Assembly: GCA_963713975.1 (NCBI GenBank)
Contig: OY970218.1
Span: forward strand, 1,024,001-1,088,000
Direction of reading: 5' to 3'
DNA from: an uncultured Chloroflexia bacterium
Lineage (GTDB): Bacteria > Chloroflexota > Limnocylindria > Limnocylindrales > CSP1-4
Length of the DNA stretch: 64,000 nucleotides
Made by a program: the position numbers and the translations under genes. The notes under the pieces are model-generated. The model saw only the letters and a list, made by a program, of their open reading frames with translations. It was not told where the DNA came from and searched no databases. Positions 21,495 through 32,302 of the stretch are shown here, in pieces; positions within the stretch are counted from its first letter, which is position 1; each line of letters starts with the position of its first letter.

Positions 21495-22880
21495 ATGTCC
21501 CCCGATCCCACACCCGCCGGGGAGCCCGCCGACACGACCCCGGTCGAGCCCGTGCCCGAGCCCGCTCCTGTGCCGACCCTTCTCGCCGAAGGAGGCGCCT
21601 CCCCCACGCCATCACGTCCGGGCCGGCGCACCGGCGTCGCGATCGTGGCCGGCGCCATCATCGCCGTGCTGGCGGGCGGCGCCCTGTTCTTCTCCGGCCT
21701 GACCCTTGGCCGCCAGGCGGCGCTCACGCCGGGCACCCCGGTGAGCGAGGCGGAGGCGTTCCAGCCGTTCTGGGACACCTACCGGGCCGTGACCGAGCGC
21801 TACGCCGGCGGCGAGGTGGACCGCAAGGCGGTGATCGAGGGCGCGATCAAGGGCATGATCGACGCCCTCGGCGATCCGTATTCCCGCTATCTCACGTCCG
21901 ACGAGTTCAAGGCCAGCCTGGAGGGGATCTCCGGGGAGTTCACGGGGATCGGGGCAACCATCGGGACCGTGGACGCCACCGGCGCCACGTCATCCTGCAC
22001 GGACCTGTCCCCTGACTGCCGGATGGTCATCGTGGCCCCGATCAAGGGCTCGCCCGCGGACAAGGCCGGCCTGCGCCCGGGCGACGCGATCACGGCGATC
22101 GACGGCGTGACCGTGGACGGCCAGCCCCTGGACGAGGCCCGGATGAAGGTCCGCGGCCCCAAGGGGGTACCGGTGGTGCTCACGATCGAGCGCGACGGCG
22201 CGACGCCCATCCAGATCGAGGTGGTGCGGGACGTGATCGTCACGCCGGATGTCGAGACCCGGGACCTCGCTGACGGAACGGTTGGCTACATCCGGCTGTC
22301 CGGCTTCTCCGATCACGGTGCAGAGGAGTTCGACCAGGCGGTCGTCGGCAACGTCAAGGCCGGGCGGACGAAGCTGATCCTGGACCTGCGCGGCAACCCG
22401 GGCGGGTTCGTGACCGCGGCCCGCGACATCGCGGGCCAGTTCCTGGCCGACGGCACGATCTTCTGGCAGGAGGACGCGGACGGGAACCTGGTCCAGACGG
22501 TCGCGACGCCTGGTGGTGCGGCCACCGACCCGGCGATTCGGCTGGCGGTGCTCGTCGACGGCGGGACGGCATCGGCGTCGGAGATCGTGGCCAGTGCCCT
22601 CCAGGACCGCGGGCGTGCGGTGCTGGTCGGGTCCACGACGTTTGGCAAGGGCACCGTCCAGCAGTGGACCCAGCTCGAAGACGACACCGGCGGCTTCCGG
22701 CTCACGATCGCCAAGTGGCTGACGCCCGACAAGACCTGGATCCACGGCAAGGGGATCACCCCGGACGTCGTCGTGGACGCCCAGCCGGCGAAGCCCGGCG
22801 ACGACCCGGTCCTGGACGCCGCGCTCGAGAAGCTGGGCGCTGCGACGACCGGCGCCTCGGGCCCCCGCGCGACGGCCTGA
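21495..22880 (+). CDS. S41 family C-terminal processing protease (CtpA-like)
   Basis: LGDPYS, PDZ domain, LDLRGNPGG, TASASEI, TFGKGTVQ. Confidence 0.93.
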   Translation: MSPDPTPAGEPADTTPVEPVPEPAPVPTLLAEGGASPTPSRPGRRTGVAIVAGAIIAVLAGGALFFSGLTLGRQAALTPGTPVSEAEAFQPFWDTYRAVTERYAGGEVDRKAVIEGAIKGMIDALGDPYSRYLTSDEFKASLEGISGEFTGIGATIGTVDATGATSSCTDLSPDCRMVIVAPIKGSPADKAGLRPGDAITAIDGVTVDGQPLDEARMKVRGPKGVPVVLTIERDGATPIQIEVVRDVIVTPDVETRDLADGTVGYIRLSGFSDHGAEEFDQAVVGNVKAGRTKLILDLRGNPGGFVTAARDIAGQFLADGTIFWQEDADGNLVQTVATPGGAATDPAIRLAVLVDGGTASASEIVASALQDRGRAVLVGSTTFGKGTVQQWTQLEDDTGGFRLTIAKWLTPDKTWIHGKGITPDVVVDAQPAKPGDDPVLDAALEKLGAATTGASGPRATA

Positions 22881-22924: not shown

Positions 22925-22953
22925 TTGCGCGGCTCCGCAGGATCGGGTACGGT
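22925..22953 (+). promoter_or_regulatory. Putative sigma70-type promoter (TTGCGC-N17-TACGGT)
   Basis: -35 at 22925-22930 and -10 at 22948-22953 with an exact 17-bp spacer, just before a structured RNA. Confidence 0.6.
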
Positions 22954-22982
22954 CGCTTGCGAACGAAAGGAGGTGATGTGCA

Positions 22983-23033
22983 GTGATCGACAGTAGTAGT
23001 TGCTGCACCACCTCGTTGGAGATCGCCGCCTAG
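22983..23033 (+). CDS. Putative 16-aa peptide MIDSSSCCTTSLEIAA
   Basis: Perfect SD at 22966-22976, GTG 9 nt after GGAGG, TAG stop; too short for the ORF track. Confidence 0.5.
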   Translation: MIDSSSCCTTSLEIAA

Positions 23034-23062
23034 TTGCGATCCCGACGGGTGGTCGGTAGCAA

Positions 23063-23096
23063 ATGAACGCCGGTCCGGCAACGGGCCGGCGTTCGT
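23063..23096 (+). terminator. Strong hairpin with GCAA tetraloop; possible terminator/attenuator
   Basis: ATGAACGCCGGTCCG-GCAA-CGGGCCGGCGTTCGT: 15 bp including 2 G-U pairs; no clear U tract. Confidence 0.55.
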
Positions 23097-23172
23097 GCGT
23101 CCGGGCCACGGGGTCGCGCGTGCGACACTTGCGGCCATTCCCGGCAGCCGTTTCCTCGAGAGGAGTTCCGCC

Positions 23173-23631
23173 ATGGGCGACACGATCGCCCAGAACCGAC
23201 GAGCACACCACGACTACAGCATCGAGGACACCTTCGAGGCTGGCATCGTGCTGCGTGGCACCGAGATCAAGAGCATCCGCGACCACAAGGTGAGCCTCGC
23301 GGATGCCTACGCGCGCATCGAGCGCAACGAGGCCTGGATCATCGGTCTCCATATCGCTCCCTGGGGCACGGCAGACGTCCGCTTCAACCACGAGCCCAAG
23401 CGCGCCCGGAAACTGCTGCTGCACCGCCGCGAGATCGACGAGCTGCTGGGCAAGAGCAAGGCCAAGGGCCTGACGATCGTCCCGCTCCGGATCTACCTGT
23501 CGCGGGGCCGGGCCAAGGTGGAGCTGGGACTCGCCCGTGGCAAGCAGACCTGGGACCGGCGGCGCGAGATCGCGGAGCGCGATGCGAAGCGGGACATGGC
23601 GCGCCAGGTCGCCGAAGCGCGCAAACGCTAG
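23173..23631 (+). CDS. smpB: SsrA-binding protein SmpB
   Basis: IAQNRRAHHDY, EAGIVLRGTEIKS, RKLLLHRREI, RGKQTWDRR; GAGGAG SD. Confidence 0.97.
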   Translation: MGDTIAQNRRAHHDYSIEDTFEAGIVLRGTEIKSIRDHKVSLADAYARIERNEAWIIGLHIAPWGTADVRFNHEPKRARKLLLHRREIDELLGKSKAKGLTIVPLRIYLSRGRAKVELGLARGKQTWDRRREIAERDAKRDMARQVAEARKR

Positions 23632-28475: not shown

Positions 28476-29432
28476 TCAGCTCCCGGCCGGTTCGATGCGC
28501 GGCACGCCGGAGCGCGCCAGGCGCTCCTCGAACCGCCTGGCGGCGAGGTCCAGTTTGTCCAGGTGCTCGGCGAGCCTGCGGCGTGCATCCTCGGCGGTCG
28601 CGTCCAGGCCGGAGAGCTCGAACACGCCCCAGAACTTGAGGATCGGCAGCAGCACCTCGTCGCGATGCACCCGCAGGTCGTAGATGCCGGCCTTGGCGAT
28701 GTCCGCGGCCTTGCGCAGGAAGTTCTGGATCCCGGCGCCCGGCATCTCGAACTTGAGGATCTCGTCCACGATGGCCCGTACGGCCGCGGAGGGCTCGATC
28801 GCGATGGCCGCCTTGAGGATGTCCCGGTAGAACACCATGTGCATGTTCTCGTCGGCGGCGATGCGGACCATGATCCGGTCCGCTACCGGGTCCTCGGAGT
28901 AGCGCCCGGTGTTGCGGTGCGAGATCCGGGTCGCCAGCTCCTGGAAGGCCACGTACGCGAGCCCGTGGAGGGTGTCGGGCATGTCGTGGTCGTAGCCCTT
29001 CTGGAGCTGCGCCATGCGACCGCGCTCGAGGAGCGTGGGGTCGAAGTTGCGCGTCACCACCAGGTAGTCCCGCAGCACGATTGCGTGGCGGCCCTCCTCG
29101 GCCGTCCAGCGGCCCACCCAGTTGAGCCACGCGCCGTCACCCTTGCCGAACATCCCGTGGATGAGCCGGTGGTAGCTGGGCAGGTTGTCCTCGGTCAGCA
29201 GGCCGACCTCGAACGCCGTCTGGGCGACGCCCGTCAGCCGTGGCTGGTCCGGGGTCCATGGCTCCTTGTCGAAGTCCCGGCCCAGGCGATACGGGATGAA
29301 GTCGTGCGGGAACCACTCCTGGGACACCTTGAGATGGCGGTCCAGCAGCCGTCCGGCCTCCGGCTCCAGCTCCTCGAGCAGGCGGCGATCGAGGGCGGGG
29401 ACCTCCACGGGGGCAACGGGATCGTCGGACAT
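28476..29432 (-). CDS. Soluble diiron acyl-ACP desaturase (DesA-like)
   Basis: LLTEDNLPSYH, WTAEEGRH, FQELATRISH, DENMH. Confidence 0.92.
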   Translation of the reverse strand: MSDDPVAPVEVPALDRRLLEELEPEAGRLLDRHLKVSQEWFPHDFIPYRLGRDFDKEPWTPDQPRLTGVAQTAFEVGLLTEDNLPSYHRLIHGMFGKGDGAWLNWVGRWTAEEGRHAIVLRDYLVVTRNFDPTLLERGRMAQLQKGYDHDMPDTLHGLAYVAFQELATRISHRNTGRYSEDPVADRIMVRIAADENMHMVFYRDILKAAIAIEPSAAVRAIVDEILKFEMPGAGIQNFLRKAADIAKAGIYDLRVHRDEVLLPILKFWGVFELSGLDATAEDARRRLAEHLDKLDLAARRFEERLARSGVPRIEPAGS

Positions 29433-31930: not shown

Positions 31931-32302
31931 GGGGATGCGTGGTTTCGACAGGGCTTGGCTGCCAGGGAACGCGAGCCGAGGTGCCGTCAGGCCTCGTTAA
32001 ACCGGCGGCAAAACGAAGTAACTGCCAACAAGCAGCCTGCTCTCGCCCTCGCCGCTTAGGCGGTAAGGTGAGCATGGAAGCGGCCTCCCCTTCGCGGGCC
32101 GTGGAAGTGTCACTCAGCGAAGGTGCAGCCCGGAAGAGACTGCGTACTCCGGAGCGAAGCCCGATCTAGGGACACGTGGATGGGCCGGACGGAAGCCTGC
32201 CGATGGGCGTCCGACCGGCTGACGAAAACCATCGGACACGCTCGTAGTGGGTCCTGGCGAAGGGTTCTGGACGGGGAGTTCGACTCTCCCCCATCTCCAC
32301 CA
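31931..32302 (+). ncRNA. ssrA: tmRNA (one-piece); tag peptide (A)ANKQPALALAA
   Basis: 5' GGGGATG pairs with 3' CATCTCC-ACCA, including G3-U. TTCGAC near the 5' end, TTCGACT T-loop, tag ORF at 32024-32059. Confidence 0.96.

Follow-up and report, generated by a model that had tools for sequence, protein, structure and literature searches.

In the mRNAs of type I toxins such as hok and aapA1, a closed co-transcriptional fold hides the Shine-Dalgarno (SD) sequence, and a later rearrangement permits translation of a short open reading frame (ORF). Short leader ORFs are also found in the attenuators of the trp and thr type, where three segments pair alternatively (1:2 or 2:3) and a hairpin follows, and the mRNA-like domain of transfer-messenger RNA (tmRNA) carries a short ORF with its stop codon in a hairpin loop. 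Among the families in Rfam the nearest to the element considered here is CC2171 (RF01867), a small RNA (sRNA) of Caulobacter and other Alphaproteobacteria, for which expression on a Northern blot is reported in Methylorubrum (bioRxiv 10.1101/2022.01.24.477521). Some likeness is also seen to Ms_IGR-5 (RF02471), an uncharacterised sRNA of Mycobacterium smegmatis (bioRxiv 10.1101/2021.12.14.472595; PMC10454040) that sits between MSMEG_5794 and MSMEG_5795 and not beside smpB. Here we analyse a stretch of 64,000 nucleotides (nt) from an uncultured Chloroflexia bacterium (contig OY970218.1, positions 1,024,001 to 1,088,000 of the forward strand; the window), in which the 292-nt gap between the genes of an S41 C-terminal processing peptidase (ctpA) and smpB holds a conserved structured RNA. 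On balance, and by no means firmly, we take this element to be an independent small gene, that is, an RNA of about 140 nt with an exceptionally long SD and a peptide of 13–23 residues that gates its own ribosome binding.

An earlier note on the window, made from its letters, had listed promoter hexamers, a 12-nt SD, a small ORF (sORF) running from GTG to TAG, two mutually exclusive helices sharing positions 23000–23014 and a 15-bp hairpin with a GCAA loop, and all of these are present when the sequence is read and folded. They are set out below in window coordinates; the class representatives mentioned here and later are the 35 sequences of the duplex test, drawn from 25 genera of family f1, 4 of f2 and 6 of f3.

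22925–22930, plus strand: -35-like hexamer TTGCGC, read in the sequence; TTGnnn stands at a constant distance in 34 of 35 class representatives
22948–22953, plus strand: -10-like hexamer TACGGT (TAnnnT), 17 nt after the -35
22966–22977, plus strand: extended SD AAAGGAGGTGAT, complementary to 12 nt of the genome's own 16S 3' tail and invariant in all copies read
22983–23033, plus strand: sORF of 16 codons plus TAG (23031–23033), with a GTG start 9 nt past GGAGG; predicted peptide MIDSSSCCTTSLEIAA
22970–22986, plus strand: segment 1, with the core of the SD and the start codon; forms the 5' strand of Fold A
23000–23014, plus strand: segment 2, the ORF-internal anti-SD (TTGCTGCACCACCTC), partner of segment 1 (Fold A) or segment 3 (Fold B)
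23018–23021, plus strand: second SD-like GGAG, 9 nt 5' of the stop codon and inside the Fold B stem
22999–23060, plus strand: long hairpin of Fold B, about 25 pairs with the stop codon in the apical loop, from the minimum free energy (MFE) fold and covariation
23044–23060, plus strand: segment 3, the SD-like 3' strand of Fold B (CGGGTGGTCGGTAGC), rival of the SD for segment 2
23063–23096, plus strand: hairpin 3, 15 pairs with a GCAA loop, terminator-like and without a U tract in the window genome
23097–23102, plus strand: tail GCGTCC, 3' of hairpin 3 and conserved in the family

The 12-mer of the SD occurs twice in the 3.62 Mb of the genome, once in the element and once as the antisense of the rDNA end, and the element's SD is the strongest of the genome.

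The observation is real and far beyond chance. Within the genus, a core of 161 nt is found in 35 of 36 genomes at 84–98% identity, the single miss being a genome that is 72% complete, and a repeat search finds the 295-nt region around the element in single copy in the genome. In the genus alignment there is little or no variation in GAACGAAAGGAGGTGATGTGCAGTGA, TTGCTGCACCACCTCG, the TAG and the last hairpin over its full length and tail; the flanks are scrambled. Across the order, a covariance model trained on 30 copies from the genus and 8 from the sister family gives one strong copy each in 145 of 151 genomes, covering all 28 genera, with the six misses falling in small genomes of 67–90% completeness. 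The same model finds the element in 54 of 151 genomes sampled from the phylum (genome G218 among them); these take in 10 of 10 from another family of the class, the third, and genomes of no fewer than eight families besides, and the 27 best of these 54 matches all show the same plan on reading. Relatives thus share two of the three things for which the earlier note had wanted them checked, the SD being invariant and the sORF kept, but not the third, a peptide ending in Ala-Ala (13 of 91 distinct copies). No Rfam family matches the element at its gathering score, permissive E-values gave sub-threshold matches only, and literature searches turned up no description of it.

The RNA from 22950 to 23100 has an MFE of -83.2 kcal/mol compared to -55.8 ± 4.1 kcal/mol in 200 shuffles (z -6.63, with no shuffle as good), in keeping with the structured RNA claimed earlier; on the minus strand the intergenic region shows nothing special against shuffles (z -1.57). 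Fold A, in which 22970–22986 pairs with 23000–23014, appears in the MFE structure of many relatives and is 96.3% paired across 36 distinct sequences. Fold B together with hairpin 3 is 98.8% paired across 36 distinct sequences; both partners have changed in 12 pairs, and 0 of 500 shuffles reached the covariation score. The duplex test found both duplexes in 35 of 35 class representatives, sharing at least 13 nt of segment 2, and Fold B was the stronger in every one; the median energies in f1 are about -21 kcal/mol for Fold A and about -33 kcal/mol for Fold B, each about 3 standard deviations better than those of shuffled ORF bodies. Outside the class, Fold A is kept in four of eight representatives (from f25, f30 and f36). 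In f6 (L094, L095) it is a downstream CTCCTTTG, copying the extreme end of 16S rRNA, that hides the SD, instead of the segment inside the ORF. Fold B and hairpin 3 coexist in both the MFE and the consensus structure and are therefore not arranged as in a trp-type attenuator; for the attenuator suggested in the earlier note no logic is visible, since the long hairpin and the last one do not replace each other.

The sORF is most likely translated, judging from how its sequence has changed among relatives. A frame stands at constant distance from the SD in all 97 loci that carry the element (L001–L097), and the pattern recovers it in 19 of 20 further genera, the twentieth using a TTG start. For codon and ending counts we used 91 distinct copies. 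Their starts are GTG (80), ATG (10) and TTG (1), their stops TAG (67), TAA (19) and TGA (5); in 81 the start lies 9 nt past GGAGG, and their length ranges from 13 to 23 codons. All three starts and all three stops swap at constant places, and the frame is kept through length changes of 3 nt, as translation predicts; the SD at working distance and the start and stop preserved despite substitutions are those of a translated small ORF. In 79 of the 91 copies a GGAG or GAGG precedes the stop by 8–9 nt and would let a terminating ribosome hold on through its anti-SD, though as the pre-stop GGAG is also part of the Fold B stem the two constraints are inseparable. TAG or TAA ends 86 of the 91 copies; among the long ORFs of the window genome TGA accounts for 69% and TAG or TAA for 31%. 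Sensing specific to RF1 was considered and set aside, TGA being found in five lineages and common in CC2171. We also note that an ATG within the SD duplex opens a frame of six codons (window 22976–22999) that closes in a tandem TAG TAG; it was taken as incidental, not being conserved in f2 or f3, which read GGTGGTG there.

When set beside the described systems, the element can be filed under no known family, and looks like an SD-sequestering translational switch that is in looks a distant cousin of CC2171. Over its full length the model RF01867 matches the window with 25.3 bits (E about 1e-3), the gathering value being 75, and the f2 copy L032 with 20.7 bits. Both RNAs have at the 5' end an extended SD (GAAAGGAGGUGAU) with GUG after it, and both have a tiny ORF, internal hairpins and a GC-rich terminal hairpin; the extended SD, the GUG and the terminal hairpin align with high posterior probability; however, the central long-range helix of CC2171 (CAUUGUC with GACAAUG) falls on non-pairs or is deleted in the alignment. 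Peptides of CC2171 begin MSHC... where those of the element begin MIDSS..., and its stops are spread evenly over TGA, TAG and TAA. We applied the same reading to 120 alphaproteobacterial loci (L099–L218) picked by the 5' motif of CC2171, which give 112 distinct copies. In 111 of 112, a stretch of 16 nt complementary to the 16S tail is followed by a frame of at most 30 codons, typically MSHC... or MSR..., and of these 85 contain CTGG and 30 CTGGAT, a copy of the 16S tail able to pair with the GATCCAG part of the 16-nt SD. With E limited to 0.01, the element's own covariance model, R1, matches 35 of 61 loci of CC2171, a figure that is partly circular, as the motif used for selection overlaps the SD. 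No smpB, ctpA or ftsX is found nearby in any of the 120 loci. As a separate observation, a Vut_1 transporter gene precedes CC2171 in 21 of the 120, and RNase R follows it in 2 (Bosea).

Ms_IGR-5 reaches 25.1 bits on the f2 copy L032 (gathering score 45) and nothing on the window at E up to 10, and resembles the element in a 5' SD-like GGAAGGAGGUGG enclosed by a hairpin, in a further hairpin and in a GC-rich terminal one. Leader-peptide attenuators are alike in their short leader ORF, in the alternative 1:2 and 2:3 pairing of three segments and in the hairpin that follows, and the f25 copy L083 scores 41.6 bits with Thr_leader of Rfam (threshold 55), but the element's 2:3 helix lies off the terminator and the part that is hidden is the leader's own SD; no antiterminator helix shares bases with the terminator stem, and no run of codons for a sensed amino acid is common to the peptides. 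The SD-sequestering folds of type I toxin mRNAs (a subject of PMC6733600) are alike in that a fold proposed to hide the SD is followed by release of a short ORF, whereas the element's peptide is hydrophilic, no antisense partner is evident, and the chromosomal copy is single and conserved. The likeness to the mRNA-like domain of tmRNA lies in the stop codon placed in a hairpin loop of a short ORF, and in smpB as a neighbour; unlike tmRNA, the element has an SD and start codon of its own and no tRNA-like part, and the tag-like ending is not conserved.

For transcription, the promoter call rests on hexamers conserved at constant distance and not on a consensus scan, which found no sigma-70-like promoter and no plus-strand terminator at the element. 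The pattern TTGnnn-N16-18-TAnnnT, with its end 11–14 nt ahead of AAGGAGG, is carried by 34 of 35 class representatives and by 37 of 43 sequences overall. From this spacing the RNA would begin a few bases 5' of the SD, and we place its start provisionally near 22960. At the other end, an intrinsic terminator in the sense of a GC-rich hairpin with a U tract is absent on the plus strand at the window's copy; family f1 has lost the U tract of hairpin 3, with the stem and the tail GCGTCC frozen. By reading, a U tract follows the last hairpin in copies from f3, f4, f6, f25, f30 and f36. The next gene is convergent in two lineages (L085, L088), and in f6 (L094, L095) a canonical U7 terminator ends the unit just before the promoter of mreB, where there is a separate TACAAT promoter. 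U-tract terminators and neighbours that are convergent or separately promoted argue that the ancestral state is a stand-alone small gene. The neighbours outside the class include SpoIIM with LysM, an Asp/Glu racemase, a PBP transpeptidase with a BirA-like ligase, MreB and GATase; a cell-envelope theme is possible among them, but was not adopted.

In the reading that we favour, segment 2 in the ORF is a copy of the 16S anti-SD and would have two alternative partners, the SD with the start codon (Fold A, closed) and the downstream SD-like segment 3 (Fold B, open and about 10 kcal/mol more stable). Fold A would be able to form first in transcription and Fold B would release the SD later, an order of folding that we infer; a ribosome reaching the stop codon at the tip of Fold B would then melt Fold B and reset the choice, and hairpin 3 would end or stabilise the RNA. 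Selection would act mainly on ribosome engagement and RNA architecture and not on the peptide sequence.

Several points weigh against this. The covariation that the earlier note had proposed to look for in the stems is clear for Fold B and hairpin 3 but slight for Fold A, where two pairs have changed on both sides and 16 of 500 shuffles score as high; changes in Fold A are mostly one-sided (for instance U-A to U-G) because the SD side must keep its complementarity to rRNA. The same duplex test did not detect Fold A in four of eight representatives of other classes (f4, f6). Small shares of the element's sequence words were found in 20 metatranscriptome runs, and contigs from four of them were examined, which are 85–99% like the window and thus come from relatives. 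They cover the element but already begin 5' of its predicted start, and those of three runs extend beyond hairpin 3, downstream into smpB; a discrete RNA is neither shown nor denied by them, and DNA carry-over is possible. The residues S, C, T, T, S and E of the peptide coincide with paired nucleotides, so they speak neither for nor against a functional peptide. Finally, it is only a guess that the RNA acts in trans, perhaps by sensing or buffering free 30S subunits.

The alternative that survives best, possible if on the unlikely side, is that within the class the element serves as the 5' leader of smpB (of smpB-ssrA in some members), with read-through past hairpin 3 and with translation or folding of the sORF setting the amount or stability of the smpB message. 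In the window, ctpA (21495–22880) is the upstream neighbour and smpB (23173–23631, plus strand; Pfam SmpB, 4.1e-59) lies beyond the element and outside it, and this order of ctpA, element and smpB holds in all 30 genus loci fetched. Of the 27 loci L070–L096, 12 have the element between the peptidase and smpB, and they are exactly the members of the class; 0 of the 15 from other classes do; smpB coupling is thus an arrangement at the level of the class, not the general function of the family. The gene directly downstream on the same strand, which such a leader would regulate, is smpB in the class, L085 and L088 being the lineages with a convergent gene there. Distances from terminator to smpB, taken from 13 loci, put the ATG of smpB about 28–43 nt past the element's terminator in f3, which argues for co-transcription in that family; the loss of the U tract in f1 and the contigs of three runs that pass hairpin 3 point the same way, and co-transcription with smpB is plausible in the class. 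The gene for tmRNA directly follows smpB in f2, f3 and genus g3 (L072 2163–2526, L076 2185–2542, L032 1799–2023, L071 2828–3165), giving the order peptidase, element, smpB, ssrA, which also speaks for this explanation. However, Fold B and hairpin 3 stand in one structure and no antiterminator-terminator alternative is seen, no mechanism tying sORF translation to read-through is visible in the structures examined, and the contigs are not proof of a single transcript. Moreover, the conserved TGCGACACT motif (23121–23129) could be smpB's own extended -10 in the genus. It belongs to a small hairpin at window 23113–23129 (GTCGC, a 4-nt loop, GCGAC) followed by ACT, seen in most members of the genus about 35–45 nt 5' of the smpB ATG; the region could be either the extended -10 of a promoter of smpB or an element of its 5' untranslated region.

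Decidedly unlikely, to our minds, is that the peptide is the product that matters, as a Ser/Cys/Thr-rich micropeptide of 13–23 residues whose synthesis the RNA folds merely tune. An N-terminal M-x-(D/S)-S-(S)-C does recur across classes in differing nucleotide contexts, the third position of the Asp codon varies (GAC, GAT, GAA), and 83 of the 91 copies have some Cys. Yet Cys is missing from the other 8, and ranges from 0 to 4 per copy at variable positions; the length is just as free, and no residue is invariant outside paired nucleotides, those that persist through the family (S, C, T, T, S, E) being coded by nucleotides paired in helices. The codon before the conserved GAG ends in G whatever residue it encodes (Q, R, S, A, L or P), which indicates a constraint on the nucleotide. 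The C-terminus varies freely, with endings AA in 13 copies, AV in 8, VA in 7, NA in 7, VV in 5 and 25 other kinds (GL and VR among them), and even a single genus has VV, GA, GL, VL, VA and VD. Five peptides of 20–23 residues gave no match in Pfam or NCBIfam at E up to 10. The peptide is thus hardly the point. The Cys-sensing leader of the earlier note fails on the same variability in number and place of Cys and its lack in 8 of 91 copies, and the downstream genes are not Cys genes.

It is more improbable still that the element is an untranslated base-pairing sRNA, with its anti-SD or SD-like segments targeting other mRNAs or the 16S tail and the ORF incidental. The strong structure and the conservation at nucleotide level would suit such an RNA, as would the rare AGT and TGT codons retained in the sORF despite a genome of 71% G+C, but the interchange of three starts and three stops at constant places and the constant spacing from SD to start would not. 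Pairing of the element with tmRNA or with the smpB 5' region is also not above that of shuffles (z 0.1 and -0.6, in a test that is crude on such long strands).

That the peptide mimics the ssrA tag and serves as a ClpXP decoy can be practically dismissed, for though the window copy ends in LEIAA and the tmRNA tag, ANKQPALALAA, does end in LALAA as the earlier note had said, an AA ending occurs in 13 of 91 distinct copies and endings are diverse within the genus. Endings, lengths and Cys all vary, and the likeness of the window copy to the tag is therefore accidental. The earlier interpretation was in part correct, in that a translation-linked and undescribed RNA switch was rightly recognised, and in part wrong, in the tag mimic and the Cys sensor.

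The remainder of the window provides the setting of the element. Its genes include secA, a DUF218 gene, a GNAT gene, ftsE, ftsX, the S41 peptidase, smpB and a proline-racemase-like gene, and a one-piece tmRNA, the source of the tag above, lies at 31931–32302 (133.7 bits in Rfam), 8.3 kb beyond smpB. At gathering scores the whole window gave only this tmRNA and ASdes, a mycobacterial sRNA family, the latter at 29030–29096 with 45.4 bits compared to a gathering score of 40.

A wider proposal, speculative and rather unlikely as a whole, is that the element of this phylum, CC2171 and perhaps Ms_IGR-5 belong to a widespread and unrecognised class of mRNA-like sRNAs that would be an intramolecular copy of the SD–anti-SD duplex. 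In each, the longest SD of the genome (12–16 nt against the 16S tail) would face a copy of that tail inside the ORF, the RNA would read out or buffer free 30S subunits, and the SD-like motif before the stop would hold the terminating ribosome. In the class studied here such an RNA would have come to stand before smpB-ssrA and so tie the rescue of ribosomes to the capacity for translation.

For annotation, the analysis adds a conserved feature of 140 nt that is missing from the output of gene callers and of Rfam alike. Its bearing on trans-translation is smaller than the earlier note had hoped, though in the class the element may well set the expression of smpB and tmRNA. If the reading that we favour is true, a mostly uncultured phylum keeps a tiny gene selected mainly for ribosome engagement, whose ORF contains a copy of the rRNA tail that covers and uncovers the strongest SD of the genome. 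A set of orphan sRNAs would likewise gain a function, among them CC2171, which has been without one since its discovery, and co-transcriptional SD gating would gain a natural model.
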